From: Harriotta raleighana
Taxonomy: Eukaryota
Assembly (NCBI GenBank): GCA_050575255.1
Contig: JBNZDD010013602.1
Location: 96,333-160,332 of the forward strand
DNA length: 64,000 nucleotides
Reading direction: 5' to 3'
Part shown: in pieces, positions 15,701 to 57,111 of the stretch
Layout: each line of letters opens with the position of its first letter
How positions within the stretch are numbered: the stretch's first letter is position 1
The notes under the pieces: generated by a model
Database searches by the model: none
What the model was told of the DNA's origin: nothing
Seen by the model: only the letters and a program-made list of their open reading frames with translations
Made by a program: the position numbers and the translations under genes

Positions 15701-18700
15701 TTTTTTACTGCTACAGTTCGAATGGTCCCGAGTCTATCCCAGCTTCTAGAGCAGACTTCCTGAGCATTCCTTCCAGTCTCCTTTCTCCCTTTCTACCCCT
15801 CTGACTGCACTCCCCTCTTTACAGAGCTTCCCCCCTCTCAGACACCCCCACCTACCCAAGACAAAGCAAGCTTGTGAAGGACACCTGACTCAACAAACTA
15901 CAACAAAATTACATTTATAGAACGCCTTTCACATCTGGAGGACGTCCCAAGGTGCTGGGATGTAACAAAGACAAGAAAATCCCAAAGCCTGAGATCTGGA
16001 AAAATAAAATAAATCAACACCAAAGCATAGAAGTCCTGTATAATGTTATTAGACAAATACAGCAATTGTTCTGCACCAACAACAAATTATCTTTAACTGA
16101 AAACAATTTGAGGGCACTACAGAAACATATACACAATATTTTTGTTGGTTTAGGTAAATGTGTTTATTTTGAAATGTATTAGCCATTTATTTTATGCTAT
16201 TCGAACATACAGAAGGAGGGAACGCCTTTTCATAGTCACCTTCTTGACCTGGTGATTACCCAGGGCTCACCCTCTCAACCATCACCGATAAAGCTATCAT
16301 TAAATACATATAAAGCATAAAACACAATTTCCCTTAAGTCCTCCTTCCTTCTCCTTGGCACTCAGCCCAAAATGTACTTTATAATTGATGTCGCTTTCAT
16401 ATTTCAGGTAAATATACACAAGAGGAATACAGGGCATTTCTGTCTGATAGTGCTACAGAAACAGATGACTTCCAATCTTTTGTTGATTTAGGTAAATATC
16501 TTGTACATTTATTTAGTTTCAGCCACTCAATTTAAGGCAGTAGCTCTTACAATCTGTAAATCAATCCCCAAAAAATCAAAATGACATTTATATAGCGCCT
16601 TTCATGTTGGGAGGACGTCCGTAAAAGCTAGAAAGAGCAAGAATGAGCTCTTAATGAGTAATTGATTTATTCGGCACTGTGATATTCATAGTTATTGTTC
16701 CTTTTGTATTTCAGATCAACCATTTCTTCCAAAGCAGGGATTTGTGGCCTCAGATATTGCTGTACAAACAGAAAATTTAATATCTTCACCCTCTTATTCA
16801 GGTAACACTAAAAAGTTTAAGTCACTTTATTCATTGCAAAGTCACCTGGCCTATTAGTCAGGGTGACTTTGTATTAATAACGCCTCCCAAGTGATATTTT
16901 GTGCCAACATCATCCACACATTCAAGAATATTCTAGACAGATTTTGTAAGGAAGAGAGCATCAGTAGCTACAGACTCACAAGTTATGCAATATACCCTGC
17001 ATTGTATAACAGGATAAAGGATTTATCATCTTATGTTGCTGGTGTCTCTATACAACTACAAACAGTAGTGTGTTTGTAGATATCATTTAGACTTGGACTG
17101 GTTTGGAACTGATAATATTTTACTGTTGGAAGAATACCATTGCAACCTTATCTGTATTTCTAGGTTTTTTTCTCCCTCTTATCACTTGAAATGTCTTGAT
17201 ATATTTCAGCTATGAAAAGTGGTAAGCAGTGCACTTCACTGGGACCCGAAATCTGTGTACAAATGCAGTTTGCTGAATCTCCTGGTAATAAATTGTGTAA
17301 AATTTTGCTTTAGTATTGCATGAAATATATTTTGTATAAACTCTTAATATCAATCAATATATAATCAATATTACATTTATACATCACCATTCACGTCGGC
17401 AGGATGTCCGAAGGTGCTGTTGCTTTTGAAGAGCAGGCTTCACTGTTTTCTCCCCTTATATTGCAGTTAGGTACATTTAGTGGTTGTATCTTATCTAAAT
17501 ACTTTATTTTCATTTCTTTCAATGGCTCTGAATGTGCTAAATGTTTCTTTGTACATCGCACAACCAATATTGTCGTCATTGGAGACTTCCATTGTTGTTT
17601 CAGGTTCTTCAGCTACCCAAGACAAAGCAAGCTTTCTTCAAGCTTGTTGTTGACCTTTTTATTTAAGATATTTTCATCTGCTATTGCCACAGTACACTGC
17701 TCCTGTGAATCCAAATTAACAACAAGATTGATGAACTCTTCTTTTTGCAAGTCTAGAGATTCATAAACTACTGGCATCTTCCTCAGCTGAGGTCACTTAT
17801 TTACCCAGTCAGTACAGTATGTTGAAGCAGAATGAAGTGCATCTTTCTTAAGGGAATAGTCCGATTGCTTAATGTATTGTATCTATTTCCAACAGGGCTG
17901 TGCAGAGGCAGTACAGATGTGTACTGTTACTTTGAAAAGGAACACTGTCCCTGTAGAATACCCAAGATGAGAAAGGTGACACAATTGTTTAAACTTTCAG
18001 CTTTATGTAATATTAATAATCCTCACATTTATATAGCACTTTTCATTACTTTTAGATGTCTCAAAAGTGTTTTACACAATATACTTTAAAGTGAAGTGCC
18101 TGGAAAATTGTGGGCAAAACGCGGCAGCCATTTGCGCACATCAGTGTCCCACAAACAGTTGTGGATTGAAGTGACCAATCTTATTACTGTTTTTTCATGA
18201 GGAATTATTATCAGGGGTGTGGAGTAAGGATTGTTAACACTGGAATTCTTTCATACTTCCATTTTTGTTTTAGGATAAACTAAAGTGGATCATTATTAAT
18301 CCGACTACTCCAGAAGGTGCAAATGGGAAATTCTGGTAAACTAGACAGTAGAATTTTTGCAATTTTAGCTCCATTCATTTTAGTTTGTAACCAACACTCT
18401 TGAGATGTTATCCTATGGGAAATACACTATGTAAATGCAAGTTGTCATAAATAGGACAAAATAGGTCAGGAACTGCAAATATTATAAGAGGAATTGTGCA
18501 TGAATTTTAATTCCTATTTACTTAAAATCAGTGCCCAAATTAATATTTTCAATATTCTTTGAAAGCCTTACCTTACCAAAGAAAGGCCATTATGAATGTG
18601 CTGAAACAGGACTGAGATGGGAATCGAAATCGAATGCTAGAATCTTTTACAAGTATAGCTCCTGGGATGACTATATTTCTGATGTGCAAAGAGAATGCTG

Positions 18701-21700
18701 GATAATCGGAGGACCATTGTTCAACATTGATGTTAGTTATGGTGATATTGCTGCTGTTCATCTTCCTCATTTCATCTGTGAATCAGGTATCTTGTCAAGT
18801 GGTATATGCTTAATATTTTTCTGATCGTTTATTACACATTATGGTGCATGGTTTCTCATGCTGTGTATTACTACCAGTTACTTTGACGTTAATAAATGCT
18901 GTATTTGATATTGCGCTTCTAACATAAAAGTGTAACCACTGACGCAATCGGCACTATCTTCAATAGTACAGTGCTCCCTCTATATGCCACAGTAGTGTCA
19001 ATGAGCTTTCAATGGTTGGGGGGTGGGGGCTTGAACCAAGAGCCTCATCACACAGAGACACGAGGTCTACCAACTAAACCTGAAGGTCATTACAATCAGT
19101 TGAGAGGAAGTACAACTTCCTAAAGGCTTTGGTCTTTTCTGATGTTTTCAAAATTCTCCCTAATAATATGCTGTGTGCACATTGGCTGTCACATTTGCCA
19201 ACAATCACTGCACTGAACAGCAAATCTCAGTGAAGTAACTTGAAATATTTTAGCATTACAGGCATATTAAATGCAATGATCATCCATTTACTATTTTTGC
19301 TTGCATCAGCCCACAAAATTACAACCTTCAAATTCAGATATTAAGTATCTGAATAGCTGCATGCTCTCATAACTTTCAATTGTACAAATGATAATCAAGT
19401 TTGATGCTTATCTTGATTATGAGGTGTAAATATTGCAAGTGGTAATAGCTCTATTAGTGAAGTCAATTATTAAGCTTTGCACTAAATTTCTCTGGTTGTA
19501 TTGCCAGAGTCTAATGTATGGCCTTGATACTTTAGTCTACAAGAGCCTTAATTGCTGTCCACATACCCGATATTTTCTGGTGCAGACTCAAGATCCAAAA
19601 TGAAGTCACTTATTTTAATGTGAATGTGTACCTTATTGATGCAATAGATAAAACTTGTGAATATTTTTAGGTTCAGGGGAAGCAATACATTCTGCGAGGT
19701 ATTGTATTGTGTGCCTCAGAGATGACACTTTAGTATTGGAAAATCCATCAGAAATCCATTTATCTTATGTCGTGCAAAGAAAACAACCGCTGACCTTGAT
19801 GGGTGTCATCCTCGGTCAGGTCCACCAGGTGGCTATTCATGCTATCATAATGGTATATCAAACATTTCGAGTTGATTGTTCAATTCTTCATGTATATGTG
19901 TTACCAAATGATGGCTCATTAATACAGGTAACTGAAAATATTACATTTTATGTTATTTTTAGCTGTGAAAAGACTTCAAAGTTAATACATAGACTGTGCT
20001 TTCAACTAAACTTCGGTAACAATAAGATGTAGTGTACTTGAGATCGAATATTTGTGGGTTTTACTACAAAATCTTAATGTTAGTTGTCAAACTAATAGAA
20101 ATAATTAATATGCAGTTATCCATCTAAAAATAAGCAGGAATTTGCACACTTCATATATAACCTCTCCATTGCCAGCCTCCACTGGCTTCTAATAACCCAA
20201 CAGAAAGACCAAGATCTTTAAATTGATCTTAAAGAGTCTTAATATTGCTTACTTTTGCTAATTCCTCCAAACTAATTCTCCCTAATTTCAGTGGTTCTTG
20301 GCAGACCAATAATTAATATGATGGCAAATATAATTATGAATATTGTTTTTCTGTCAATGATAATGAGATGGAGCATCTGAGAACAATTCAGATGCAGATT
20401 ACTTGTTGTGGTCATTTTCTTTGCATTTTGTTTTAAAGTATAATCTTAAGGAAGCAGTTATCTTTTTCTAACTTTTTTCAGGTAGTTGACTTACAGGAAA
20501 AAGAAATAAAGTCCCTGAAAGTTCAAAAGCCTCCACAAGTAACATCAGTTTATTATGGCAAGAAGTATAGGCTGACATCTTTTTCAAATGTAATTATCAC
20601 ACCACTGGTAAGCGTCCCAGGTCAACAATCCCCCAAATAAAATTGGTCACAGACACTTTATTGATAGATCAGAGTTTATTATGATATTAACAATTTATTT
20701 ATTATTGATAAATTCTTAAATGAACAGATTCTTGAAACAATAAAAACCTAATTCTTTAGTGTTGATTCAAATACAATACTGTAAGAAAATCGTTATTTTC
20801 ATTATTTTCTTAAAACAATTGTCATTGTAATCGTTTTTCTGTAGTTAATTGCTCTGTTCCTGCTACACCTACTATACTTCCATCAAGCACATTTTCCTGT
20901 TCATTATACTCTCTCATTCTTGTTATTATTACAGGATATAAAATTGGGTTATTTCAGATATAAACAACAGCAACCATTCTATGAAGTTCATATCCAGGAG
21001 TTGAAATATAGCATTAAGCTGTGTTTGACTGAAAGAAGCAAGCTCAATGTTTTATGGGAAATATTGTTAAGACCAGGTCAGTACTACTGTACATAAATTC
21101 AGATATAAAAGACATGCATAAATCATGTTAAATTGAAAGAAAATAATAGTTTGAAGAAAGAGTCTGTATATTCTGTTCATTCTATTTCTAATGAAATAGA
21201 ATGTTATATTGGCTGCCATTTCCTTACAATACAGATTCAATGCATTTTGCAGGAAAATCTTGTAAAGTACATTATGAGACCTTGATGGATGGGTAAGGCT
21301 GTATCAAATGCAAGGATTATTATAAATTATCTATGACACATGGATCTGGGACCAGTTTAAAACATGTTGCTTTTTGTCCTTTTGAAAACCACAGCAACAA
21401 TAATTTACAGTTTTTTAACCATTGTGCTTTTCTTTCAGATATGTTTAAGAAGTTGAAAAGATGTGTAGAATTTGTTCAAAGACACAAAAAGGAAATAATT
21501 TATTGTCTCAAAACAATTCACCCTATCCTGTTGCATTTACGAGACACAAATGTTATCACTAAATCTGAAGAGTTGGAAATTGTTGCTCATAATGTAGAAA
21601 TTCAACAAAATAAAGCCCTGCTTCAACTAGTAATGAATAAGGGAGAAGATGCAGAAAATGAACTGTATAAAGCATTACTAAAAAATTCAGATTTTGTGCA

Positions 21701-21884
21701 GAACTTGGAAGTTAACTACTCACAGAAATTATGTAATAACTGTATAAGACAATTTGGTTTAACAACAATACAGCCAGGATGCTTCTCTACCACACGGAGA
21801 CCTGAAGGAATGTGGTTTCTTCATGTGGTTTGTATAATTTTTGGTATAATTTCAGGTTTTTTAATTGGCTACAGATTTTCTTAA
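363..21884 (+). CDS. Gene A: multi-exon UBL-FIIND-linker-FIIND-CARD-TM protein (CARD8/NLRP1-like, roughly 1300-1400 aa)
   Basis: UBL exon 363-624 (TFDLNVLRVDGRQFRVGVKPGDTMEDVKIKL...LRLLSAQQPLEDDLTVAECGL). Micro-exons 1197-1229, 1667-1699, 2072-2131, 2956-3026. FIIND1 exons 3150-3208, 3287-3507 (GNYECAVTGLRW...GPLFNI...AIHLPHFICL), 3622-3875 (HVELQMPTF/SLMGV...LHVYIIPND), 3969-4088, 4569-4710. About 23 phase-1 linker exons at 4975-17284. FIIND2 exons 17896-17975, 18274-18335, 18566-18786, 19671-19927, 20482-20607, 20935-21076. CARD+TM exon 21439-21884. Phases join in frame; a single transcript is inferred. Confidence 0.75.
3150..4710 (+). other. FIIND domain 1 (ZU5+UPA) of gene A
   Basis: Five exons with FIIND hallmark motifs; His 27 residues before TF/S (Ser codon 3741-3743), the same spacing as NLRP1 H1186/S1213 and CARD8 H270/S297. 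Confidence 0.9.
7100..7700 (-). mobile_element. CR1-type LINE ORF2 fragment (degenerate)
   Basis: Broken ORFs with ALNKFFDSVFTKEE, KSQRPDKLHLRILKDL and DSQCGFIK...AVDVCLDFSK, typical of CR1 reverse transcriptase. Confidence 0.8.
18274..21076 (+). other. FIIND domain 2 of gene A (catalytically degenerate)
   Basis: GHYECAETGLRW, GGPLFNI, AAVHLPHFIC and LHVYVLPND are retained; the cleavage site reads QPL/TLMGV and the catalytic His position is Cys. Confidence 0.85.
21439..21884 (+). other. Terminal exon of gene A: CARD plus C-terminal hydrophobic tail
   Basis: VEFVQRHKKEII...LLQLVMNKG...LYKALL (CARD of the ASC/NLRP1 type), followed by MWFLHVVCIIFGIISGFLIGYRFS*. Confidence 0.85.
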
Positions 21885-22995: not shown

Positions 22996-25900
22996 TTACT
23001 GCAAATCTTTTACAAGGTAGGGATCATGTTCCTCCATTGCAATGTAAAGCTGCTCTTGGGCATATGTCCCTTTTTTCATTACCATTTGCATTAGTGTTTC
23101 ATTCCTGCTCATACGTTTTTGATTTCTACGAATTTCCTGTTCTTCATCCTCATTGATCACCTTTTCTTCAAACAAGTGTCTAAGGTAAGGGTCAATTACT
23201 CCAAGTCTCTCAATGATACGTTTTCTGTGCCGCTTAATGAACTCCACAGCTGTAGAAACAATTCTGTATTAAGAGACAGGAGTCCATAGGATATCGTGAC
23301 AATTTTCAAAAATGTCTTTATGCACCAATTTGCTTAAAATTAAAAAGATAAAACAACCGAACTTTAAAAAAAATCTTCTGACAGAGTTTTCTCTGAAGTT
23401 TGCACAGTAGATGAGGTACAAGATTGCTTTTTGACTAAGCATAGTTCTAGCAGTACTGTTACATCTAACTCTGGTTTTCACCAGTGACTAAAGTAAAGCA
23501 GTGGTGGCCAACCCACAAGAGGCCACGAGGGTGTCAAGATGTGGCTCGCTCAACAGTCATACACTCATCCACATTCAAATGGACAAACGTCCACAAATAT
23601 CCATAAAGTGAATGAAGTTGGAATTTATCTGGAAAATCATTGACCAGGACACCAGTCTATTTTCAAATGTGTCATGGGATTGTTCATTTCTGTCTAATCA
23701 GCAGGCCTCTCATTGATAGGACAGAAAAGTGACCCATTTCTGAGTAAATCAGATAATGCGGTGTTTCCCCAGGACTGTACTAGAGTTGCCCAGATTGTAG
23801 GGAGATGATATCAGTATAATTTTCTATGTTAATTTTGATGAATACCATTTCAGCTATTGAAACATTCTGTTAGATCCCAAACCTGCATAGTTATATTGTA
23901 TACATGGTAATACTGGTTGTTTTTTTGGCAAAGTCATGTCTATAGTGGCCATTGTTAAAAATGCAATAGATACAAATGAATGAGATTTCTGTCAAAACAC
24001 TCATCTCAACACCAGAGATTTTGAATCTAGAATAAAATGATTTTACCAATTACCCTCCAGAAAATCTCCAAGACTTACCAAGGCTTGCGTCCAAAGATAC
24101 TTTGGGAGAAACTTGAAGCTCCTCTAAGGAAAACAAAGATAGGTTGCAGTTCATGGCAATTAGAAACGTTTCTCTGAGATTTATTGTAATTTGATTAAAA
24201 TCACAAACTTGGTTCAGATTAAGGTCCTTCAACCCATTTGACTTCAACTTTCTAGAATATCCACCCAGCATCTCCCCATCACAACATCAAAGTATATTTT
24301 AATAATAACATAATCATGGATTTAATAGAGACCCTTGGATGCTGGGAGTACGTCTCAAAGCGCTTCACAGGATTTACTGTAACATGTAGTGACTATTTTG
24401 TAGGCGAATACGGCAGCAAATTTGTAAACAGTGATGTAGTGAATGACTAATTTTTGTCTGGGGGAACTATTGGCCTGGTCTTCAGGAGAAACTCATTCTC
24501 TTGTTAAATAGCGCTACAGGATTTTTAACATCCATCTGAACAGGCAAACGGGTCCTAGGTTTAACATCTCACTCTGAAAACTAACGCCTCAACAACGCAG
24601 CACACCTCCAGCACTAGTGGAGTGTCAGCCCAGACAATATGATTTCAAAGTTCTGACATGGGGCTTGAACTCAACACCACTTTATTTCCTATGCCCACGC
24701 TGGCAGGAAATTTAAAAAAAACTTGAGATAAAAATAAGAATCTCAAAGTAATATTATAAATTCAATTATATTCTAAAACATGTTATTGGAACGTGAAGAA
24801 ATTGTAACATTTCTTTATATTTAAAAAAAAACAATTTCTGCAATGCTATAGTAATTCAGTACATGCCTGGAGGAATAGAGGACCTTCAGATACATTAATA
24901 AGTAACTCCACAAACTAATATTACTTTGCCACCAGCAAAATGAACTATATTTTGTAGTCCTATGCCATTACACATCATTATGTTGAACTGCTACACTATG
25001 GATGGATCATTTTAACACTTACTTGGCCTCAGCAAGGTCATCCATAAAGGTTTGCTCTTTTTTATCTTCGGGGACAGCTTTAACTCAATGTTGCTTTTCT
25101 CATCTTCACTATATACTTCACAGAACTGTTGGTATTGATCACTTCTCAAATAACAAAAGTCTATATCCTGCAATAAAAGTAAAAAAAAGTAATTGTGCAT
25201 CACTACCAGGTGCTTTTCTTGAGTACAAATGGCTTTCCACCCAGCCAGCCAATTTCTGCAAGACCATTTATCTGGTACCCTTCATACAGAGTAGCATCTT
25301 GGAGCGCTGAAGCAGTTGGCAAAGAGAAAGCTTAAGATGGTGGCTATTCCAGAATTTCTGCTCAGTCAACCATGTGTCTACAGGACCCTGAAAGGGTGGA
25401 ATCATGTCAGGCAGCTGATGGCAATCAGGGGCATAGCCAGGTCTGGAAGTGGGGCATTGGCTGACACTGTACAATAGCTCTGGCCAAGTTGCGCTTTCTC
25501 TGAAACTTGCATCTAAGATATGGATAGTACAAAAAGAGTTCTCCAGAACTCCGTTACCAAATATCCTGATTCCACTAAAATTGATGATCTCACAAGATCA
25601 GTTTGGATGAAGAATTATCCTTCTAATTTTGATTTCTTTCTTCCAGAATATAGTCAACCAGAATATAGTCTACCTGTCACACATCATGCAGTTTGCCTTT
25701 TCCAATCAAGTGTGTCCTCACATGAACAGAAGTTTCTGATATAAGCCATTCACACACATTCTAGAACCACTTACTGGTGGAATAATCTTGATGTTGGCAG
25801 GGCTGGTCAAGGAATACGTTTTGCCATAACTGAGTGGTTTCATCTGTGCAGGTTTCACAATTTTCTTAGCATCTGATTCCTGTTCCTTAACAGCCTGCAA

Positions 25901-28653
25901 AGAGATTTGGGCATTAGTATCCTCAAGATTCATTTTAACCTGGAATCATTTGATAGGTTTAAATAATAGGTAGAAATTACCTTTATTATTGACGATTCAT
26001 TTGGTACAAAGTAGACGTGAAGGGTTAATTCTCCAACAGTCTGCCTCCGATAAATCATTCCCAGAGTGTGAATGGGGAAAAGCCATGAGGATATCTTCGA
26101 AATAACAACACTGAGCAGAGAAAACTTTGGTGACTTCAGTTCCACATGGTTGGGATAGACTGCTGATGGGTTCATGAGTGAATAGTTCCCATCTTTCATA
26201 TGAATAATTTTCAATTCATCCTTAGGTAGGCATCCTACACATACAAAATGTGGTTTGTCATGTTTCAGTGAACTACATTCTCAGAAATGATAATCCTTGC
26301 ATTTTATACATTACATCACATCATTGGCTGTCACAGACTCAAAATTCTTCACAAGGTTTAAGTGTAATGACTGTATATTAGTAGGCAAACTTGGCATAGC
26401 AATTTCCTACATACAAATGGCTATACTAGTGAATGACCAATTTTATCTGGGACATTGCTGGTCAGGATATTGTCTTTTTGAATAACATCATGGGATCTGT
26501 AATGTCCACATGAACAGGTACAAAGATTAGTATTATTATATCTGGTAAGGAATATGAAAACAAGCTTGCATATATAATGTGAATGAATTGCCAGTACCAG
26601 TCAGGACAACCAAGTTCTACAGTGGCATACACAATAATTACTGCTCCTATTGCAGCTGCAATTAGTCTCTGTCTCACTTCAGTTGTTGTGCCACATTTGA
26701 GCTCCTGCCAAAAGCTGTTGTAGCTGTCAAGTGGAACATGAGGTGGGATTTGAGTTTATTAAATGATTGATTGGATTCATCCTTCAGAGGCTAATTATCA
26801 TCTTGAACCCAAAAAATCAAAACACTTCTAATTGTGATTGAAAAGTTTCAATAATTAGAGGAAATAATGAAAATAACATACCTTTCAAGCATAAAAAATG
26901 GGGCAGGTGAATAGCTGTGACCTTTCCAGTTTTTACCTGGATATCAAACAGTGGTCCACAGATTTGCAGATCGCTATCCGTTTTAGAAAGATATTCATCC
27001 CATGATCCATATTTACAGTCAATGATAGCTTTTGACTTGGTTTCCAATCTCAGTCCAAGTATGGAACATTCATAATCTCCTCCAGCTGGAAGAGAAATCC
27101 TAAACAGAAATTATTTAAAATGGTGTCCATTTTAATGTATTGCATTAATATTTATCTTCTGATTTCTGCAGACAGTATTCTGGACCCGAGCTGGGGGTAG
27201 AGTTTGGGGAGGGTGGAAGGCAGGAGGGAAACAGATTGATCGAAAGCACGGTCAAAGAGGAGAGCCTAGAGGTGGGTCTTGAAGGAGATGAGGGATGGGG
27301 CAAGGCGGAGGGACAAAAGGAAGGAGTTCCAGAGGGTGCAGGCAGAGTGGCTGAAGGCCTGCCCACCAATGGTGCAGTAGGTGAGGGTAGGGGGTGAAGC
27401 AGACAGAAGAGATCATAGCTTAATCATTCAGCATTATATTTTTGTTATATTTTACCTGAAGCTCATCTCAGCTTCTGAAAGAACATCTGGATCCACCACA
27501 ATCCATTTTGATGAGTTCTTGAAGGAAACATGGAGAGACATGTAACAACTCCACTGTTAACTGGAAACGGTGAAACACTGCTGCTTATGCAATTACCTCT
27601 TTCCCACAAAGTTCACAAGAAATTCTTCTGTATTCCTCAAATTCCTCGAATGCCCCTCTACCCTGTCCGGCTTAAGAAAGTAGAACAATATGAGTGAAAA
27701 CAAAATTAACTTTAATGTAACAACAACATTTCCAGTGCATTGGGACGTCGAGAGGACATCCCATGGTACTGGAAATGTTATGTTCTCACAGTAGTAATAG
27801 TATGGGGGGTGGGGTGGGGGTTCTGATCAGCTTGTACAGTTGTATTATGTACAGTAAATTATGTATTTGTACAGGCAGAATGTGCGAGGTAATGTCAACG
27901 GTGTACACAACATCCTCCCATAGTCAACCCAACTCCTCTAAAACTTGATGGATGAAATGGATGTTTATTTTATGATTATATTGGGACTATATAACAACAT
28001 TGAAACATTTCTGAGCTGGGCGGGTCAATACTCCAGCATTCCTCTGATGAAAGTCCAGTCTGGCTTAGCAGAACTTAGGGAGGGGCAAACAGAGAGCGGG
28101 AATGCTTCCCACTTGATACTAGCTAGACAAACGATAGAAAGCTTGTCTCAATCGCGGACATGTTCTCTTGACTAAAGCTACTTGACAATACTGGATATCA
28201 ACCTAGACAGACAATCGGTGCTTCCCTTGGCCGCTGATTGGACACATTCTGAGAGATGTGCATGCAGTTTCTTCACAGAACACTCCCTCTTTCCCCAGTT
28301 ATTACAGAATACCTTTACAATATTGTATATCCTTTGGAGCGCTTTGAGATATCTCTAGGAAATCAAAAGCTCCCTGTATGAAACGTGAGTGTTATTATCG
28401 CAGTTTTTTCTTTTAAAAAGGGCAACATTCCTCTTAAGGTACAAAATTCATCTAAATTCTGTAGTTTCAGCAGCAGTTTGAATCAAATGGCCTGAGCCAC
28501 ATTTTGCAATGATGTTTTACCATGTTTACCCAGGCAAGATTGTAGTTATGGAGCACAAGATGAAGAATAGTGAATACAACATAGAATACCTGAAGTGGAA
28601 TGGCGAATGGCCGGCTTGTTATGCTTGGTAGGTGTTTTGCGCTTGGCTCCCAT
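22996..28653 (-). CDS. Gene B: CARD8-like FIIND-CARD protein with short basic N-terminus (~411 aa)
   Basis: Minus-strand exons 28590-28653 (MGAKRKTPTKHNKPAIRHSTS), 27597-27670, 27456-27517, 26882-27099, 25981-26234 (HVELKSPKF/SLLSV), 25775-25894, 25023-25167, 24079-24123 and 22996-23249 (CARD). Total 1236 nt, all GT-AG and in frame. The first coding exon is the least certain. Confidence 0.82.
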
Positions 28654-32840: not shown

Positions 32841-33365
32841 GGCCCACTCAAGACTCTCCTCTTCAATGGTCCCATCGGCAACTCCTATTCCCTCCCCCCC
32901 TCCCCCCTCGGTCTCCAGCTCCAGTCTGACACAGTGACAGTCCAGCACCTTGGGATGTCCACCTGATGTGAAAGGCATTATACAAATGTAATTTTGTTGT
33001 TGTTTATTATTTACAATTATAATATAAATCTAAATTTTCAACTTTAATGTCAATTATTATTGTATTTTAGCGGCGAATGAGTGTGGCAGTTTGGAATTGC
33101 TCAAACTGAGTTTTGAATCGGTTTTAAGGGGTTAAGTTTACAGAGTGAAAGAGAAACCAGGCTACTGTCAAACTTCCGCTGGGACTTTGAAGAACACGAA
33201 AGTGGTTTAGAAACACAATCAATGACTTCAGTCCAACAGCTTCTACCATGAACCGAGTAATGAATTGCTGAATTATTCTTTATTCTTATTCTTAAATGAA
33301 CGGTGATTTTATTTATATTCAGCAATCCCTGAGCAATTTCTAGTTTGAGTGCTGCAAATCTCAAG

Positions 33366-36300
33366 ATGGCAGCAGCCCTAGAGACAGAGGTTTGCATTGA
33401 TCTCAGAGCACAGTGGAGGGACTGCCATTCTTTCCCGATTATTATTGATTTCAATACCGAGGAAGACTATAGGGTCCACATAAACCTGTCTGAAACAGTG
33501 GAATGGTTGAAAGAGGAATTGTCGGATATATTGGAAATTCCTCCTTATTCACTTGAGTTATTTTTGGATGAGAAGAGAATGCATGATAACCTAATGCTTT
33601 CTGTCTACGATATCAAGCCGATGAGTACAGTGTTTTGCAAACCAAACAGTGAGTAAAACTAATTTCTGCCCTAAGCTTCAGAAGGAGCCCAGAGCAGCCT
33701 CTGTGTGTGTCTGTTTGTGAGTGCGCATTGTGTGTGTGTGTGTCTTTCTGGGTATGTGTAACTCAATCACCTGTCTGTTTGTGTTGAGTTGAGTGTGTGT
33801 GGATCTCACTGTGTGTATGAAGAATCAAGAATATGTTTTTGACAGCGTGTGAAGCAAAAGACCAAATTGTGAGTGAGACTTGCAATAAACAAGGTAGGAA
33901 GGGTTCTGGGCTATACTGGTTATGCTCCGAGATGCTATCCCTCATGGAAGTTACTATATAAATGTAAGTTGTTGTTGCTGCACTAGGGATGACTACTTGC
34001 CAAAATCTGCACAAAGTCCTGCATCTGCAGCTCGTATCCACAATGCTGCTTGACCGACCACCCTTATTCTGACCTGGCTCTACCCTACTCCTAATGCCTT
34101 GCTCCTCACTACCTCTATGACCTGTTAACTGCATAATGACCTATCCGCACCCTCCACTCAGCAAACTCTAGACTGCTCCATGTCCCCCACCCTACCCTCA
34201 GCACCTTAGGACATCCTCTGACATGAAAGGCGCTCTATAAAAATAATTTTGTTGTTGTTGCCCTCCCCATCCCACCATCAGGGGACGGGCCTTCAGCCAC
34301 GCTTTGGAATTCCATCCCACAGTATCTTCGTCTCGCTCCCTCCCTTGCCTGTTTCAAGGCCACTATCAAGACTCATCTCCTCAACCATGCCTTTAATCTT
34401 AATTTTTAATGTCAATTATTATTGACTTGTAGATGCAAATCAGTGTTACAATTTGCAATTGCTCAACCTAGGTTTGAATCAGTTTAAGGGGTTACGTTTA
34501 GTGTGAAAGAGGGAGGAAACAATACTAATGACCCAAGAGACCCAGAGGGCACATTACATTACTTCCTTATAATAGTTGAGACCGTCAGACTCCATAAATT
34601 TTTTAAAAGAGAAAGTCTTTGAACACATCGGTGTAGCTCCCGAGTTTCAGTCCCTATTGTTTGATGGCATTTATCTGGAGAATGAGAACCGCAGTCTCCG
34701 CGAGTGCGGGATCCAATCGGGATCCACCCTGTGTGTAATGTATGATTCTTTCCTGAGATTGAATCCTTTTCTAATCGAAGAGCAGTCACCTAGATGTATA
34801 GAGGCTCAAGGGGGTAGTTTTCCACTGATATACCATATACCATCCAAATGAGGCCATTAGGCCCATTGTGTCTCTGCCGGCTCTTTGAAAAGTACTGCCA
34901 AATGATTCCCACTCCTCTGTTCTCTCCCCATAGCGAACATTCAGTGCTTTGGGACATCCTCCCTCCGTGAAAGGCACAATGCAAATGTAATTATGTTGTT
35001 GTTGTTCTCCCCAAATAATTATCTACTCCTCTCTTAAAACATTGCCCCCACTCTTTGGATCTCTATCCCACAATATCTTTGCCTCGCTCCCTCCCTTGCC
35101 TCCTTCGAGACCCGTCCCAAGACCCACCTCTTCGACAATGCCTTCTTTCATTCTCTCATCCCCTTCTGCCCGCCTTACCACCCCCTTATTTATTTTATTT
35201 ATTCAAATCTCCTGTGTATTGCTTTGCAGCACAAAGTGGTGCTGAAATGGTGAACTCAGGTAATGTGTGTCATATACTGGGAGCAATTGAGATTCCCAAT
35301 TTGTCAACTAATTCAAGCAACTCATTATAATGGATCTTTCTGTGTGATACATCTTTTACCTGCTCTCGACGCAAATACAAAAAGTTTCTTACACAATCCA
35401 CGATATTCTCATCGATGTCAAATAAAGTATTTTTGTTGTGGTTGAGAGTAAGCAGCTGATGCTGAATAATCCTGGTACATGGCATTGGTGTTGAACATCA
35501 AGGTGGCTGACATGTCAGAATCTGCCTTGCAAAGGTCCTCCCACCATTCTGAAGGCAAATGTCCATCAAATAGAGGAAACGGTGATGCATGTTCATGTTT
35601 GTTTGCCTTTTCATTAGAAGTTATTGATAACTACAACAACTTGCACTTATACAGTGCCCTCCATGCATGGTAGCATCTCGGAGCGCTCTTAACGGTGGGG
35701 CAGAGCCTGTGGGGGAAGAGGTGACCAAAGCACAATCGAAAAGGAAGGTTTTCACGCGGGACTTGAAAAAGGGATGAGAGGGGGACAAGGTGGAGGGATT
35801 GAGTGTTCCAGAGACTTAAGGGCGTAGTGACTGAAAGCACAACCCACAATGGTGGAGAGGAGAGTGCGAATGACAAGCTGGAGGCCGGGGCCAGTTGAGT
35901 GGAATTTAAATAAAATTACGACACATGTGATACATACAGAATAATGCTTTTCTTCTCTGTACATTCTCCATATATCTGTTTTATTGTTAATAATTCAAGA
36001 ATTTGTCAGGCATTTATTCTAATCTCCTGTGTATTGCTTTGCAGCACAAGGTGGTGCTGAAATGGTGAACTCAGGTAATGTGTGTCTTATATTGGGAGCA
36101 ATTCAGATTGCTAATTTGTCAACTAATTCAAGCAACTCATTAGAACAGATCTTTCTGTGTGATACATCTTTTACCTGGTCTTGACACAAATATTAAAAAG
36201 TTTCTTCCACCATCCATGATATTCTCATAGATTTAAAATAAAAGTATCACTCTCCTTGGTTGCTCATTTTAACTCGTGGAGCCCATACAGAACCACGTCA

Positions 36301-39300
36301 TTTGTTTCAACTCTCTGAGGCTTGGGGCAACAAGTTCGTGAATACACATTCTTACATTCAACACTTGAAATCCACCTTGATTGGTGTAATATGGCATTGA
36401 CAAAAAGTCATTTATGAAATCAAGTCATTGTGATTTTCTTGCTTAAACAAAAACTTTCCTTCGCATTCTTTCAGGTACAATTGAAGGCATTGTAACAGGT
36501 AATCATGTGTTGCTATTTAACATCAAAATTAAAGAATTTTACTTATGAGGAATGTATGGAAATTATGAAAGGTGACGAACATAGTTTGTTGTATTTTCTG
36601 CATCCTTACTCTGAGGACCAGACCTTTTTTCTAATGAATTTAAAAATCTGCATGGAGAAACAATTTTCCAACTAAGAAAATTTTTAAGGAACATGTGAAA
36701 CCTGAGCAATTTTAACATTTAGAGCATTTTGTGTGTAGAAACTCTGGGAACTTGATGGCTTTCTGTATTGAAAGGATTCATTCAATGTTATTAGTATGTT
36801 TCCTGATGTGACAATGTTAAAATAAAAAGTACAAATACTTCTGTGCTCAACTAGCTCTGCGACAAGTAATAATAATAATTGTCTTTAGAGTTCTTGCTGA
36901 GTCAGTTCTGAGGACTGAGCTGAGTACAGAAAAGTATTTTAGTCTCCACCCATCAAAAATGTGGAATAGATTTATTGTTGGATGCAGAAATCTATAGCTT
37001 GACATGGGTGGTATAAAATATGAAGCTTACATTCCTTCAAACATTAAAATTATTATCTTTGAGTAGAGCAGAATGCTGAACATTTTTCCACATATGAAAT
37101 AGTACCTGGATTTATTCTGTTAATATTGATAAAATTACTAATGTACAGATTTATTTCAGATTGGGAACCTTACAAAGAATCTGAAGCTATGAGTCAATCA
37201 GGTATCTGAATTCCTTGTTTTATAAAATCATTAATTAAAGTTGCTGATAGGTTAAAACAATTCACTTTACAGTATATTCTGTGAAGTGCTTTGAGACGTC
37301 TAGAAGACATGAAAAGCACTATATCGAATGGAAGGATTATAATTATTATATAACTTTTCATCTTGCCCAGGAATTGAACCCAATTCCTCTCATTTGTGAG
37401 CATTGTTCTAACCACTAAACTATGGGGCTTTGATTGAATTGCAAGAAAGTAATATGCAGTATTCACAAGGATAGGGAAAACTAAAAGGTTGATTTTCCTT
37501 TTTTTGAATGATTACAATCTCCTGCAATAAGAAGCTTTTTCCATTTTTCAAAGAAAAGTTGAAAAGTTTTGTTACTTTCTGTGAATATTGTTGGGTACTA
37601 AAAGTAGTAACACCACTAAGTGAATCCAGTGTTGTTGTACATCAGTTTAAAATGAGAAGGAGCAGGTTCCACTGATTCGTATTATTCTACTTTATTAAGA
37701 TGGACAGGAGAGAAGGCCATTCAGGGAATTTGAGAAATACAAAAGAATTTCTTGTGAGCTTTGTCAAGACGAGGTAAGTGCATAAGCAGCAGATTCTTTC
37801 ACCGTTTCCAGTTAACAGTGAGTTGTTGTGACATATCTCTCCGTGTTCCCTTCAAGGACTCATTGGAATGGATTGTGGTGGAACCCAATGTTCTTTCAGA
37901 AGCTGAGATGGTTTTCAGGTAAAATATCAAAAATAACGCCGAATGATTAGAACTGGTGTGGAATTGCAATAATTGTTTAAACATTTCTCTTCAGGATTTC
38001 TCTTCCAGGTAAAGGCTATTACGAATGTGCTGTAACCAGACTGAGATGGGAAACCAAGAAAGAAACTACCATTAGCTACAGATATAGCTCCTGGGATGAT
38101 TTACATTTAAAAAAACATTTACGTAGAGACGTGAAATATTTAGGCCCATTGTTTAATTTCAACGCAAAGAATGAAGAGATTGCAGCTATTCACCTGCCTC
38201 ATTTTGTTTGTCTGAAAGGTAATTTGCTAACTTTCAAAATCCTTCTAGGTAGACTTATTTTGATTTGCAACATAAAAAATTGAAAATATCAGCCTTGCTT
38301 AGGGGTCAGATTGGCTCAGTTAGTAGCACTTTCATATCTGAGTCATAACTTTATCTGTACAAGCATCACTTTGGGACAGCTACATTATCTGAGACGTCAC
38401 CCTTTGGATGAGATGTTTCCTGTTCAGGAACATATTTAAGATCCATGGCCCTATTCGTAAAGAGTATGGAATTTCTTGTGATGTCCCAACAAGATCCTAG
38501 ATACTTCATGACTGTTTGTGCAACATTGCAGTGCAAAAGTCAGTTGCATGTTTGACTGCAAATATGCAGTCATTGCACCTTACAGTAAATTTTGTGAATC
38601 ATAGACTTTGATAACATGCTATGCTGATATATTAAATATATGGATTATTATTAACAACAAAATTGCATTTATAGAACTCCTTTCACATCGGGGGGACATC
38701 CCAAGGCACTGAAAAAACATTACTGAGAACCATCAGCCAACATTTAATAAATAGTAATAATCATCATCCTTAGCATCCCTCACATTGGATTGATCTGTCA
38801 AAGCGCTTCAGAGGATATACTGTAAAGTGCAGTGATTGTATGTTTCACAAACAACCATGAAGTGAGTGACCAATTTTATTTGGGGCTTTGTTGGTCAAGA
38901 CATCGGGAGAAACTCTTTTCAATTAGTGTCATGCGATCTTTAATGTCCATCTGAACAGGCAGACAGGACATTGGTTTAACATCTCATTTAATACAAAATG
39001 CAATAAACTGCAATCCCATTAATATTTATCACTCAAAAACACTTGTTGGAAAGAACTAAAGTACTTAAAATATCTTCTAACTTGTGACATTTTATGCAGA
39101 ATTATTGGCTTTATTCCCCAAGTGGGGAAAAAAATATATAGTACATATTCATAATTGCTCTACACTCAATGTGCCTTTCACATATGTGAAAACAAATTTA
39201 ATACTGATTTACAATTACCTCCAGTTTGTAGTGTTTTAACTTGCATTTAGTTCATTCACTTTATACTGTTGTAGTTTGTTAAAATATATAAACCTTTATA

Positions 39301-42136
39301 AACCTGCTAACATATATAAATAAATCTTTCACTGTGGTATGTAGAGTCAAAGTACGTACCATTCTTTGAGATTTTTAATTTGTAAAATACTGAATTTTCA
39401 CTAAAATTAATATTGATTCAAGACCCCCGCTCCAGTTTGTCCTGTTTTAACAAATACTTGCATTTAGTTCATTCACTTTGAATCGTTGAGGTTTGTTAAA
39501 ATATGTAAAGTTTATAAACCTGTTAACAAATATAAACCTTTAATTGTTGTATGCAGGGTCAGGGAATGTGCCATCCTTTGAGATTTTTCATTTAAAAAAT
39601 ACTGAATATTCACTAATGACTCCAACAACAATTGGTGCAACGCATGTGGAATTGAAAAACCCAAGCTTTTCTCTCATGGGTGTCATGTCTCACATATTGG
39701 CTTGGTTTCAAATTCACACTGTGGGAATCATTTATCAAACACTGACTGCTGAAGATGTAACGCTCCATGTCTACATTTTACCAAACGACTTATCAATACT
39801 GAAGGTATTTTCTTATTTTGAAAACCGTCTTCTACAGTCTCTGAACAACATGTACATTCAGCTGACAACACAGTCATGTCAACCTGGCTCAGTGGTCGAC
39901 TCAGATTTAGAGGGTTGTGGATTCAAGCATTAGAATCATATAGTCGCAGCTGACACTCCAATCTCGACAAAGTGATGCAGCACTATATCAAATGCAAGGA
40001 TTATTATTTGTTATATCTTGTTCTAGACAGTTCAGATGCAGGAAACAAATTCTGGAAAAATTGAAAAGCCTCCACAGATCAAGTCATTACATTACGGACA
40101 AGAGTATTCACTGCAAAGCCCTTCTAGTGTTGAAATTTCTCCATCAGTAAGTACTATCATATCATACTTTGAGGAACTAATTTCTCCATTGTTTCCCGAA
40201 CCAGTTCCCCCACAAATCATTGTCCTCTGTGTGTTGCAGGCTGTAACTCTGCATTACCTGAGCTGTAAGCAACACCAACAGTACTATGAAGTATACTGTG
40301 AAGATCAGAATACCAACATTGAGTTACAGCTGACTAAGTTAGACAGGACGAATGCTTTGTGGACAGTTAAGTTGAGAAAAAGTAAGTATTAGAGAAGTGA
40401 TCACTGTAGAAACATTAGGAACATATAATTAGTGCTAAAATCCCAAATCAGAAGCCCCAATTATAGTTGACTCCCAGAGCTTGCTTCTGATTATCATCAT
40501 CATCAAAGAGATCTACAAAATCATTAAAGAAATTTGCATGATTGGCTGTGAAGTCCATCAGAAGCTCTAAACTTCCTCCAACCTCATCCAGGTCCACATA
40601 CTGGCATGTTCTATCAGGGAACATCTCATCCACTACCATTGCTCAATTCAAACGGCTTTCCCTCAGAGATCAGAGAACTTTTAAGTAGTCACGAATAAAA
40701 GCCCAATACTTTGCTGCACAATACCCTTCTAGACATTTATTACTATGCCTTAACGACTGTACCTTTTTATTCCCCTTAGAGGATCTTCGCGTTTCAAACA
40801 AACAAGGTGGAACAAGAGGTAGATATTTTCCGCAACATACTTCAAATGAATTGTCGTTACAAGTTAAGAAATAATTAATTTGACTAGTATAAGAGAGAGA
40901 AAGACCAGAAGTAATAAATAATCAGAGAGAAAGAGAAAAATTGCTTGTGAGAGGGAGTCAAAAGGTTGAATTGAATGAAGAAAGCATCTCTTCCTTCCAG
41001 AACACTCCTACTATCCTCTATTGCAGCATTAAGATGATTTTTAAATCAGTTCAGCCTTTTCCTATCTGACATCCGGAGAACCTTTCCAGGCATTCACAGC
41101 CTCTGATCAATGAAAAACTTCTGTGGTAATGGTCGTGAAATTACTCTTTAGATCTAGACCCACCAACCACAATTGGCTTTATAAATAAAACAACTGTTTA
41201 TTAATATCAATATTCAAAAATAAATCTACTTTTCATCAAATTTATTTAAATTTTCTGGATCAAATCCCCAAACTTTTTTTGTGGATTAGAAACTATCTTT
41301 ATTGGTTCTCAAAATATATTTGCATTTTCAGCAAAAGCCAAACCAAATATATTTCTCTCGTACAATACTTTAGTTACGGCCACACATCACTCATGTGTAA
41401 AGTAGGCAACATATTTGTAGTCATGATGAATGAATAGCCTTTTACTGAAGTTTTGTAATTTTTTCCTTTTCTTCAGATGTGCCTGACGGAAGCATAAATG
41501 GTAAGTCCAAATATATCACCAGATAAGCTTCTGATCCATCCATCCATCCATCCACCCACCACCCATCTAATTTTTTTAACATATCCATTCTAGCAGAGAT
41601 AACTAAATGGAAATGAGGAAGTGTCGCCACTTCCCCGAATCCCCCCCACCCTGCCCCCTGAACCAAGGACAATTCTAATATTCTAGCAATTAGCTATTTT
41701 AAATCATCAAATAGTGCCAAAGATTTGGAAATGTTATGACATCAAAACAAATAAAATACAAATGAAGAATGAAACTAACATAATAGAAATGCTTTATTTT
41801 GATTGCATGTGGCTACTTAAGGATGTGTTCTGAGTTACATGCAGAAACTGTCTCTAATACAGAACTATTTCTACAGATGTGGAGTTTGTGAAGCGGCACA
41901 GAACACGCATCATTGAGAGACTTGGAGTAATTAACCCTATCCTTAGATATTTGATCGAAGCAGCTGTGATTAACGAGGATGAACAGGAGAAAATTCTTTC
42001 CACATCAACAAGATCAGAAAAGAATCAGGCACTGATGCAAATAGTAATGAGCAAAGGAATACATGCCCAAAAGGAGCTTTACAGAGCAATGGAGAAAATT
42101 GATCCCTACCTTGTAGAGGATCTCAAGAATTTCTAG
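33366..42136 (+). CDS. Gene C: UBL-FIIND-CARD protein (~513 aa)
   Basis: Exons 33366-33648 (UBL: [49 protein letters not shown]), 36475-36498, 37160-37201, 37700-37773, 37857-37918, 37995-38218, 39557-39804 ([14 protein letters not shown]), 40027-40146, 40240-40381, 40780-40818, 41477-41500 and 41877-42136 (CARD). Total 1542 nt, in frame. Confidence 0.82.
34400..34800 (+). pseudogene. Truncated intronic copy of a UBL cassette (homologous to the first UBL of gene D)
   Basis: [53 protein letters not shown] matches 45822-46080. The upstream UTR-like block matches 33030 and 45500. No ATG exon start or donor was found. Confidence 0.65.
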
Positions 42137-43639: not shown

Positions 43640-45686
43640 GAGACACAGGGACAAAAATTTGCAGAACAGGAATAACTGATAATAACAACACAACTATATA
43701 GCGCATCTCACGCAGGGTAGTGTCCCAGAGCACTTTGGCCTTGATTTCAAGAGCGACGGGCAATGTCAACATTGAGGTGGTAGGTGGGGAAGTATATATG
43801 GAAGTTGGAGAGGAGAGTTGAGAAATCTGAGGATATGGGGCAGGAAACTTTACAAAGTTAAAGTCACCCAAAAAGAAGGGATGCTCAGTACTGAAAGAGA
43901 GAGATTAGGTGAGAGGAGATGTCAGTGAGGTAAGAGCTGTGGGGAGAGTGGCGTCTAGAGGTGATGTCAATCCAGGGTCTGGCATTGGAGAACTATGAGG
44001 ATGATCTGAGCAATCATTAGACAAGCTATGGTTCTTCAGTCTTGAAAAAAGGTGATGCAGAAGCAAACTGATAGACGAATAAAATATTAACTGAGTGATT
44101 GTTGGAAAAAATAAACCCAGGACAATAATTTAGGAGGCACTAAAGACAGAACAGGAAAAAATGGGTTTAGTTATAAAAGGCTTTTCCTGTTTGACTACAT
44201 TGGTGGGATGGGGTTTCCCTTTCTAACCCCCCTCTCGGCTCTCATTATCAGCTCAGGCATCAAGCCGGGGCTGTCAAGCACCCTGCATCGACATCCTAAC
44301 GTGAATGGGAGTAGTTATTTGCAATTCTAATAAAATTTAAATTTTCAACTTTAACATAAATTTTTGTTATCTTGTAGCTGCAAATCAATGATACAATTTG
44401 GGGCTGCTCAAACTGGGTTTGAATGTGTTTAAGGGGTTAAGTTCAGTAGAAAAGAGGGAGGAACAATGCTAATGACACAAGAGCATTAGAACCAGGAAAT
44501 GCACATTCCAAGGAGTGNNNNNNNNNNNNNNNNNNNNNNNNNNNNNNNNNNNNNNNNNNNNNNNNNNNNNNNNNNNNNNNNNNNNNNNNNNNNNNNNNNN
44601 NNNNNNNNNNNNNNNNNNNNNNNNNNNNNNNNNNNNNNNNNNNNNNNNNNNNNNNNNNNNNNNNNNNNNNNNNNNNNNNNNNNNNNNNNNNNNNNNNNNN
44701 NNNNNNNNNNNNNNNNNNNNNNNNNNNNNNNNNNNNNNNNNNNNNNNNNNNNNNNNNNNNNNNNNNNNNNNNNNNNNNNNNNNNNNNNNNNNNNNNNNNN
44801 NNNNNNNNGAGACACAGGGACAAAAATTTGCAGAACAGGAATAACTGATAATAACAACACAACTATATAGCGCATCTCACGCAGGGTAGTGTCCCAGAGC
44901 ACTTTGGCCTTGATTTCAAGAGCGACGGGCAATGTCAACATTGAGGTGGTAGGTGGGGAAGTATATATGGAAGTTGGAGAGGAGAGTTGAGAAATCTGAG
45001 GATATGGGGCAGGAAACTTTACAAAGTTAAAGTCACCCAAAAAGAAGGGATGCTCAGTACTGAAAGAGAGAGATTAGGTGAGAGGAGATGTCAGTGAGGT
45101 AAGAGCTGTGGGGAGAGTGGCGTCTAGAGGTGATGTCAATCCAGGGTCTGGCATTGGAGAACTATGAGGATGATCTGAGCAATCATTAGACAAGCTATGG
45201 TTCTTCAGTCTTGAAAAAAGGTGATGCAGAAGCAAACTGATAGACGAATAAAATATTAACTGAGTGATTGTTGGAAAAAATAAACCCAGGACAATAATTT
45301 AGGAGGCACTAAAGACAGAACAGGAAAAAATGGGTTTAGTTATAAAAGGCTTTTCCTGTTTGACTACATTGGTGGGATGGGGTTTCCCTTTCTAACCCCC
45401 CTCTCGGCTCTCATTATCAGCTCAGGCATCAAGCCGGGGCTGTCAAGCACCCTGCATCGACATCCTAACGTGAATGGGAGTAGTTATTTGCAATTCTAAT
45501 AAAATTTAAATTTTCAACTTTAACATAAATTTTTGTTATCTTGTAGCTGCAAATCAATGATACAATTTGGGGCTGCTCAAACTGGGTTTGAATGTGTTTA
45601 AGGGGTTAAGTTCAGTAGAAAAGAGGGAGGAACAATGCTAATGACACAAGAGCATTAGAACCAGGAAATGCACATTCCAAGGAGTG
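43640..45686. other. Apparently identical ~880-bp duplication on either side of an N gap (44518-44808); probable assembly artefact
   Basis: 43640-44517 is repeated at 44809-45686. Confidence 0.75.
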
Positions 45687-45821
45687 ACTGCCTTAAATGG
45701 AGTCCGACAGTGTCTCTCTGAATTACACTTTAATATTTATATTTTTAGCAATACCTGAGCAATTTCAAAGAACACAGACAATACCACATCAATTTCTAGA
45801 TTGAGTGCCGCAAGTCTGAGG

Positions 45822-56323: not shown

Positions 56324-57111
56324 CAGGCATCAAATAAGTAGAGGTTTAATTGCTAAAAGAATGGGACAAATAAATATTCTTGCTACTGTTATTTCTGCAA
56401 CATTACGCAGTCAGAGCAAGGTGTTTCAAATAGGTTGGATTATATTAAAACTGCCTGGTTTTGTTTAGTTTCTCCAAACTTTATTGATTTTCTAGCTCAA
56501 ACACATTTCTGGGATGAGGTGTTTCTGGTCTGAATGTCTTGGTTTTTCTTCTAACACCAATCCTCCGTGTGGTTCTTTACCATGTGGGACTATGGTTGAT
56601 TCACTTCTAGATGCAAAGTGCATGTGGTCCATGAGGGTTTCCTTAAACCACATTGCTTCTCTCTGTTTGAGTTTCTTTGCTCCTTGTCTCTATCAAGCCT
56701 AATGTTCTGCCTGCTTTGCTGATGGCCTTTGAGTTTTGTAATAGTCACATTAATTAACTTTACACTTGCGATTCTGAGCTCCGCTTCAATATTTTCTTAT
56801 CATTTTATATATTGAAGGATTAGCCAGTATATGTTCTATATTATAAACAATGTATTAGCCAGTATCTAAGTGTTGCATCATCCATCCATCAGTCTCCAAC
56901 AAACACATGCCACTCTACCAGGGAGCCTTTTGTACTGTGTTCCAGATACTGTATCCTTGTTTTTTTTCTCAGGATATATCTTCACTCCAAGGAAAAAGAG
57001 CTCAGTGACTATTTTTCCAGTTTATTTGTTAAAACTTGTTTAAATGCAGTATACGTTTATATAATAATAATAATCGTTGCATTTGATGTAGCGCTTTTCA
57101 CATCTTATCGN

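Follow-up and report, generated by a model that had tools for sequence, protein, structure and literature searches.

Introduction

The biology of FIIND domains rests on self-cleavage, and the evidence that a FIIND left uncleaved can repress comes mainly from engineered mutants. In CARD8, the exchange S297A abolished cleavage and F296H severely reduced it, H252 and H270 were crucial, and E279A lowered cleavage (D'Osualdo et al., PMC3210808). H942 is the catalytic residue of rat NLRP1, its mutation abolishing cleavage, and the Phe before the scissile bond was described as a structural anchor (Huang et al., 10.1101/2020.08.13.250241). Thr and Cys were named as possible autoproteolytic nucleophiles in general (D'Osualdo et al., PMC3210808); a Ser-to-Thr test of the FIIND nucleophile was not found in the sections covered of that paper or of PMC3334886. 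A natural non-cleaving allele is mouse Nlrp1b3 (allele 3, V988D; Frew et al., PMC3334886), and the uncleaved FIIND-CARD of NLRP1 or CARD8 was reported to be inactive or nearly so (PMC3334886; 10.1101/2021.01.13.426575). Engineered CARD8 S297A and rat NLRP1 S969A still bind DPP9 (10.1101/2021.01.13.426575; 10.1101/2020.08.13.250241), and the uncleavable CARD8 FIIND-S297A, besides binding DPP9, suppresses CARD8-CT in cells (Sharif et al., 10.1101/2021.01.13.426575). The contacts reported for CARD8 comprise K272-E274, M276-E279, L368/F370 and F405/Y406, with Y406 forming part of the UPA-UPA interface, and E274R abolishes DPP9 binding (Sharif et al., 10.1101/2021.01.13.426575).

Here we analyzed a stretch of 64,000 nucleotides from Harriotta raleighana (GCA_050575255.1, contig JBNZDD010013602.1; hereafter the window), in which a predicted gene, gene A, carries two FIINDs, the CARD-proximal one (FIIND2) looking like a conserved pseudo-autoprotease. 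No description of a gene A-type protein was found in the mostly open-access literature searched by title and start of abstract, nor is one mentioned in the sections covered of PMC11258412, PMC8195603 (both evolutionary) and PMC11760013. FIIND alignments in supplements (e.g., Fig. S2 of D'Osualdo et al.; bioRxiv) could include such sequences.

Materials and Methods

The exon model of gene A was assembled by eye from the genomic sequence and is a prediction; the survey, tree, identity values and interface-residue numbering were based on a 38-exon, 1343-residue version of it. FIIND2 orthologues were gene models, and five sequences spanned the cleavage site. The family survey comprised 148 FIIND domains spanning both positions (His and F/S), from the best 150 of 522 matches plus earlier matches, with 14 mammal-looking proteins out of 155 proteins removed beforehand. 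The FIIND tree was built from 40 of 164 domain rows and midpoint-rooted, rodent P0158 being excluded. A model of the catshark orthologue was used as a stand-in for the fold of the window FIIND2.

Results and Discussion

Gene A joins two FIINDs in one predicted chain

Gene A was predicted to comprise 40 exons between 363 and 21884 on the forward strand, with AG/GT at all junctions and a single open frame of 1374 residues, in the order ubiquitin-like domain (UBL), FIIND1, long TQT-motif linker, FIIND2, CARD and C-terminal hydrophobic tail (Table 1). In this model, the cleavage positions are H260 and S287 in FIIND1, and C1066 and T1093 in FIIND2. A ubiquitin-like domain N-terminal to FIIND1 was also present in P0004, P0012, P0015, P0149 and P0156. 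Nearly all linker exons were phase 1, and the last six are common to the RefSeq model of Callorhinchus milii (P0001), the first of these six only partly. The exon carrying the cleavage site gave partial Pfam matches to FIIND and UPA-FIIND, single UPA exons of FIIND2 scored under the Pfam cut-off alone, and the last exon was homologous over its full length to the C-terminus of the electric ray Narcine.

Table 1. Positions of the predicted gene A features within the window.
Feature	Position	Strand	Basis
Exon 1, ubiquitin-like domain	363..624	+	Pfam ubiquitin, 36.3 bits
FIIND1, 4 exons; His at 3660-62, Phe/Ser with Ser at 3741-43	3287..4710	+	Sequence, Pfam, site check
Acidic linker of ~540 residues, 24 short exons	4975..17975	+	Splice model
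Three LC8-type [TV]QT motifs (putative)	Exons 13534-13626, 13769-13855, 16715-16801	+	Motif count in linker
FIIND2 exon 1 (ZU5), structural His in HLPHF kept	18566..18786	+	Pfam FIIND, 83 bits (cut-off 25.8)
FIIND2 exon 2: ZU5 end, degenerate cleavage site, UPA start	19671..19927	+	AG/GT, phase 1 to 0
Cys at catalytic His position (CARD8 H270 / NLRP1 H1186)	19712..19714	+	Codon TGC; PDB-chain alignment
Val-Leu-Glu, equivalent to V277, L278, E279 of the CARD8 ZU5-DPP9 interface	19733..19741	+	Column map
Pro-Leu/Thr instead of Ser-Phe/Ser	19787..19795	+	Codons CCG (Pro, 19787-89), CTG (Leu, 19790-92), ACC (Thr, 19793-95)
FIIND2 UPA exons 20482-20607 and 20935-21076	20482..21076	+	Partial Pfam UPA-FIIND, splice model
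Last exon, coding for the CARD, a helical spacer and the predicted membrane tail, up to the stop	21439..21884	+	Pfam CARD, 36.4 bits
Predicted C-terminal transmembrane helix, then 5 residues	21810..21866	+	Mean hydropathy 2.4 over 19 residues

The same domain order was found in one predicted chain of Narcine bancroftii (P0156), in which a preceding integrase piece is probably a gene-model error. Because of this chain and the open 40-exon GT-AG model, the assignment of FIIND1 and FIIND2 to one gene, already proposed in a first-pass annotation of the sequence, is supported by the predicted structure. Two separate genes were considered unlikely: no CARD was detected between the FIINDs, no GC-rich CpG island was found past the first 2 kb of the window, and both halves occur in a single chain in P0156 as well as in P0012. 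No NACHT or LRR was detected by Pfam in full-length P0156, and the window linker consists of short acidic exons; the FIIND is followed directly by the CARD without NACHT/LRR (Pfam, window exons and P0156), which is the CARD8-type order. The predicted protein can be classed neither as NLRP1 nor as a plain CARD8, and the database names 'NLRP1-like' derive from the FIIND in these proteins.

Two exon-like pieces were left out of the model: one at ~14687-14750, which resembles exon 14940-15008, lacks a donor and hits a stop, and one at 2281-2313, which has splice ends in the wrong phase. A Cys-rich exon lies right before each ZU5 (17896-17975 for FIIND2, 2956-3026 for FIIND1), with CPC before FIIND2 and, in the orthologues P0012, P0015 and P0156, CxxC before FIIND1.

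The cleavage site of FIIND2 is degenerate

A His lies 27 residues ahead of F/S in five of the six window FIINDs (FIIND1 of gene A and those of genes B, C, D and E); the sixth, FIIND2, reads Cys...PL/T, its site being QPL/T. The codons thereby bear out the first-pass observation, and FIIND2 deviates at three cleavage-relevant positions, His, Phe and Ser. When the C. milii protein, which is 93% identical, was aligned to PDB chains, the Cys fell on NLRP1 H1186, rat H942 and CARD8 H270, and L/T fell on F/S. The structural His (CARD8 H252) and the Glu (E279) were both retained. A sequencing error was ruled out because RefSeq XP_007900136.1 (P0001, C. milii) carries the same Cys and QPL/T, and so was a frameshift in FIIND2 exon 2, which is colinear with the orthologues (2 gap columns in 203). 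Contrary to RefSeq, P0002, the UniRef version of this C. milii gene, has His at -27, yet still PL/T. Since its matching peptide IIHLL falls at 19279 within an intron of the window, and no GT donor follows it up to 19340, the His-bearing model looks patched together. An alternative His-bearing exon within intron 18787-19670 was likewise rejected: three-frame translation gave no FIIND exon, and IIHLL has no nearby donor.

Loss of the cleavage set is shared by FIIND2 orthologues

The site reads Cys..QPL/T in the window and C. milii, Cys..KPL/S in the catshark Scyliorhinus torazame, Cys..QSL/A in the electric ray Narcine and His..HPL/G in the skate Rhinoraja longicauda. None of the five combines His with a nucleophile; Phe is absent from all five, Leu being present in each, and Cys occupies the His position in four. 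The His of the skate is either a reversal or retained. At the nucleophile position the residues are T, T, S, A and G, so that Ser or Thr is still present in 3/5 and the Ala and Gly copies are without any nucleophile; on the strength of this column, Thr as a conserved alternative nucleophile was dropped. A Thr by itself would be no proof of an inactive site. The first-pass annotation had regarded FIIND2 as a pseudo-autoprotease and had named an orthologue with a canonical site as evidence to the contrary. None of the five has one and two lack a nucleophile altogether, so that its reading of FIIND2 as a pseudo-autoprotease is supported. When conservation of the substitutions was checked, as it had proposed, loss of the cleavage set was shared (5/5) and the individual residues were not, Thr being lineage-specific and the skate having His.

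In the FIIND2 alignment, 92 of 203 columns were invariant and only 7 showed at least four different residues, among them the nucleophile column; drift at the catalytic site while the fold stays constrained is the pattern of a pseudo-enzyme. Between the window and the electric ray, identity was 60.5% in FIIND2, 68.3% in FIIND1, 29.7% in the linker and 56% in the CARD. Relative to C. milii, 226/249 residues were identical in FIIND2 and 97/120 in the adjacent linker, with FIIND2 exons at 86-93% (exon 2, 80/86 residues) and the linker at 81%. The FIIND2 copies formed one clade in the tree (100/100), split into chimaeras vs. elasmobranchs and apart from the FIIND1 clade (100/100); their branching matched the species, and branch lengths were similar to those of FIIND1. 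Chimaeras and elasmobranchs diverged ~400 million years ago. As judged from these gene models, the best explanation of the patterns is that self-cleavage of FIIND2 was lost before chimaeras diverged from sharks and rays and that the domain has been kept since. The ZU5-UPA fold appears to be conserved: the catshark model (pLDDT 82.7) matched the rat NLRP1 FIIND (7crw_A) with a TM of 0.82 and CARD8 (7jn7_B) with 0.80, and Pfam scores for FIIND and UPA-FIIND were 109 + 56 bits in C. milii P0001 and 108 + 77 bits in the catshark.

Among the 148 surveyed domains (best 150 of 522 matches plus earlier matches), 118 were canonical (H..F/S) and 30 non-canonical, Ser was present in 137 and Phe in 133, and all three positions were changed in only three (window FIIND2, P0001 and P0105). 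Among the best 150 of 522 matches plus earlier matches, a Cys at the His position was also present in three proteins unrelated to FIIND2, of which two have tandem FIINDs. Since degenerate FIINDs are not rare, FIIND2 owes its interest to being conserved and to the surrounding architecture, and not just to the substitution. An atlas search matched generic FIIND-CARD clusters only. Outside the window, Cys or Asn was noted at the His position of the vertebrate FIINDs P0014, P0025, P0114 and P0007, a group that includes tandem-FIIND proteins and one FIIND-caspase-FIIND-CARD model.

FIIND1 and the DPP9 interface

FIIND1 is canonical in the window and in bamboo shark, both of which have the His, and carries Tyr instead in three of five orthologues (Narcine, P0015 and P0133). 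As these three do not group in the tree, the His of FIIND1 seems to have been lost more than once. The Tyr leaves the electric ray without a canonical FIIND, and because of it UPA1 is probably not freed in any of the three.

At the CARD8 contact positions, FIIND2 has a basic residue at 272 in 5/5 orthologues, E279 in 5/5 and L278 in 4/5; at E274 it has Asp or Asn, and the four orthologues that span Y406 read H, Y, N and N there. FIIND1 lacks E279 in 5/5, has Arg at 274 in 3/5 and keeps L368/F370 in 5/5. The retained L278 and E279 are weak evidence, since both residues are family defaults (106/141 and 126/141, respectively, among the best 150 of 522 matches plus earlier matches). Taken together the contact residues give a mixed picture, and DPP9 binding by FIIND2 is a plausible hypothesis. 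The five canonical window FIINDs (exons near 3624, 25981, 39556, 53738 and 57721) have Arg or Met at the E279 position, the equivalent Glu being kept in 126/141 other FIIND domains (best 150 of 522 matches plus earlier matches); FIIND1 and genes B-E, which are without it, may therefore be cleaved with a different efficiency or bind DPP9 differently.

The C-terminal tail and the linker

A hydrophobic 19-mer lies 4-9 residues before the C-terminus in all three complete orthologues and is missing from the canonical paralogue P0003. Its hydropathy was 1.55 in the catshark and 1.77 in the electric ray, and the catshark model contained a tail helix (404-421) of low pLDDT. Gene A, P0011 and P0156 are therefore probable tail-anchored FIIND-CARD proteins, as judged from predicted hydropathy.

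The window linker contained 3 [TVIL]QT motifs vs. 0.30 expected (shuffle p=0.002). Counts were 7 in Narcine and 8 in the skate (both vs. <0.8 expected), 6 in P0012 and 4 in P0013, and the short linker piece of C. milii had 1, which was not significant; TQT-type motifs were thus enriched over shuffles in 5/6 linkers. The GTQTE motifs of the window are similar to VSRGTQTE, reported as the best LC8 anchor in a study in which many TQT anchors failed to bind LC8 (Jespersen et al., PMC6607443).

Neighbouring genes

Four canonical FIIND-CARD paralogues, genes B-E, lie at 22999-27110 (-), 37981-42133, 51818-56320 and 57709-60284 (+). Gene B, 75% identical to P0003, runs convergently to gene A. A tandem copy of 4 kb (53132-57110 vs. 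57115-61074; 98.8% identical), the second copy of which lacks the first FIIND exon, is either a recent duplication or an assembly duplication. An 878-base repeat (43640-44517 vs. 44809-45686; 100% identical), with an N run between its copies, is likely an assembly artefact. Ubiquitin-like ORFs occur in the cluster at 45759-46313 (two such domains by Pfam), 34576-34848 and 33333-33653 and are possibly related to the source of the N-terminal domain of gene A. An acylphosphatase ORF (62660-62971) forms a single open frame with a Pfam score of 87 bits.

A proposed uncleavable scaffold or brake

FIIND2 very probably does not cleave. We propose that the gene A product, instead of being a sensor that can be released, sits on a membrane and scaffolds or restrains CARD signalling, a reading to which we assign a probability of roughly 0.5. 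Because the cleavage site is degenerate and a hydrophobic tail follows the CARD, a UPA-CARD fragment would not be releasable from the predicted protein. With FIIND2 uncut, the ZU5 would remain covalently attached to UPA-CARD and the UPA-CARD filament seed would therefore not be released, and degradation starting at the N-terminus would take the CARD down too. The C-terminal tail would serve as a membrane anchor, and LC8 would dimerise the linker; both features, which the first-pass account of FIIND2 left out, shape the proposed mechanism. In its simplest form, the gene A protein would hold, in trans, UPA-CARD pieces from the canonical paralogues (genes B-E), with or without DPP9, as the engineered uncleavable CARD8 S297A does. 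A more elaborate version, which we put forward as doubtful, is a dedicated, membrane-tethered inflammasome brake, a natural counterpart of CARD8 S297A, in which a permanent, LC8-dimerised site-A FIIND recruits DPP9 and traps the UPA-CARD of the neighbours, the UBL/FIIND1 module setting its lifetime.

That chimaeras, sharks and rays have all kept a dead FIIND implies selection for a task independent of cleavage, and the FIIND2 copies are natural reagents for testing DPP9-assisted capture as that task. If the more elaborate version is true, the roles of sensor and DPP9 checkpoint would be split between two genes across cartilaginous fishes, with the checkpoint on a membrane. The combination of UBL, two FIINDs, LC8-type linker, CARD and membrane tail suggests that FIIND-CARD signalling could be membrane-organised.

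Alternative readings

Tail-anchored CARD adaptors such as MAVS cluster CARDs on a membrane and recruit a caspase or adaptor. Gene A could likewise be a positive adaptor, in which FIIND2 is uncleavable and the protein, whether full-length or cut at FIIND1, uses LC8 and/or freed UPA1 to bring its CARDs together on a membrane and recruits a caspase or adaptor. Conservation of the CARD (56%, window vs. electric ray) and of the tail fits such a role, as do the multivalent TQT linker, the canonical FIIND1 of the window and bamboo shark, and the N-terminal UBL, which could target the N-terminal piece for degradation. However, the FIIND-CARD of NLRP1 and CARD8 reportedly has little or no activity when uncleaved (PMC3334886; 10.1101/2021.01.13.426575), and the His is absent from FIIND1 in 3/5 orthologues; we regard a positive adaptor as unlikely.

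The first-pass annotation had suggested a function in cis. In such a model, cleavage of FIIND1 frees UPA1, which is then captured by DPP9 and the FIIND2 of its own chain in a single-chain ternary complex. The ZU5-side DPP9 contacts (L278, E279) are better kept in FIIND2 than in FIIND1, and three of five FIIND1 copies carry Arg at the position of E274, where the change to Arg abolishes CARD8-DPP9 binding (10.1101/2021.01.13.426575). The site-B residues L368/F370 are kept in 5/5 FIIND1, and the long linker would give enough reach. This idea is weakened by the Tyr in 3/5 FIIND1 orthologues, and inhibition of a cleaved FIIND1 in cis is not supported as a general rule: in the three orthologues with Tyr (Narcine, P0015 and P0133) UPA1 probably stays attached, yet Narcine still keeps FIIND2. 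Moreover, no CARD adjoins UPA1 and Y406 is not conserved in FIIND2, which makes capture in cis rather improbable.

That FIIND2 still cleaves, via Thr/Ser or via the conserved Cys attacking the bond between Leu and a small residue, is highly improbable. Thr and Cys can be autoproteolytic nucleophiles generally (PMC3210808), Cys is present in 4/5 and Leu in 5/5 orthologues, and the +1 residue is always small. However, the acyl shift is excluded by the +1 Ala of the electric ray and Gly of the skate, the latter also being without the Cys; Phe is gone in 5/5, mutation of the His abolishes cleavage of rat NLRP1, and the CARD8 His is crucial (10.1101/2020.08.13.250241; PMC3210808).

Neutral decay, a pseudogene or an annotation artefact, to which the non-canonical 30/148 surveyed FIINDs (best 150 of 522 matches plus earlier matches) and the one UniRef model with His (P0002) could point, is largely refuted and barely credible given the open frame with GT-AG ends across 40 exons, the identity to C. 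milii (226/249 in FIIND2 vs. 97/120 in the adjacent linker) and the conservation of FIIND2 over four lineages.

Comparison with known systems

The scaffold or brake proposed here shares features with several described systems. Multivalent LC8/DYNLL partners also carry several TQT-type anchors in a low-complexity region, those of gene A being putative; a literature search on such partners listed no example from the inflammasome family. MAVS and CARD19 are tail-anchored CARD proteins, with a CARD and a C-terminal membrane helix and no FIIND; gene A resembles them in its CARD and predicted C-terminal membrane helix. The ZU5-UPA-death-domain modules of UNC5b and ankyrin have the same fold (Foldseek E 2e-10 and 4e-10) and are scaffolds for which we know of no self-cleavage. 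Unlike these, FIIND2, only 11-14% identical to them, is nested in the NLRP1/CARD8 FIIND family; because it derives from within that family, its loss of cleavage is secondary.

Closest is the FIIND-CARD end of CARD8 and NLRP1, with which gene A shares the order ZU5-UPA-CARD, the fold (TM 0.80-0.82) and the 27-residue His-Ser spacing. As in CARD8, no NACHT/LRR was found and a long low-complexity segment lies ahead of the FIIND. In contrast to CARD8, the CARD-proximal FIIND of gene A is without the catalytic set, and gene A also encodes a second FIIND, a ubiquitin-like domain and a C-terminal hydrophobic tail, with TQT motifs in its linker. In being predicted uncleavable, FIIND2 resembles CARD8 S297A, rat NLRP1 S969A and mouse Nlrp1b allele 3 (V988D). 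Whereas these are either mutants or a single allele of a gene whose product cleaves, in FIIND2 the catalytic residues themselves have changed, and this holds for each of the five orthologues, which come from four lineages.
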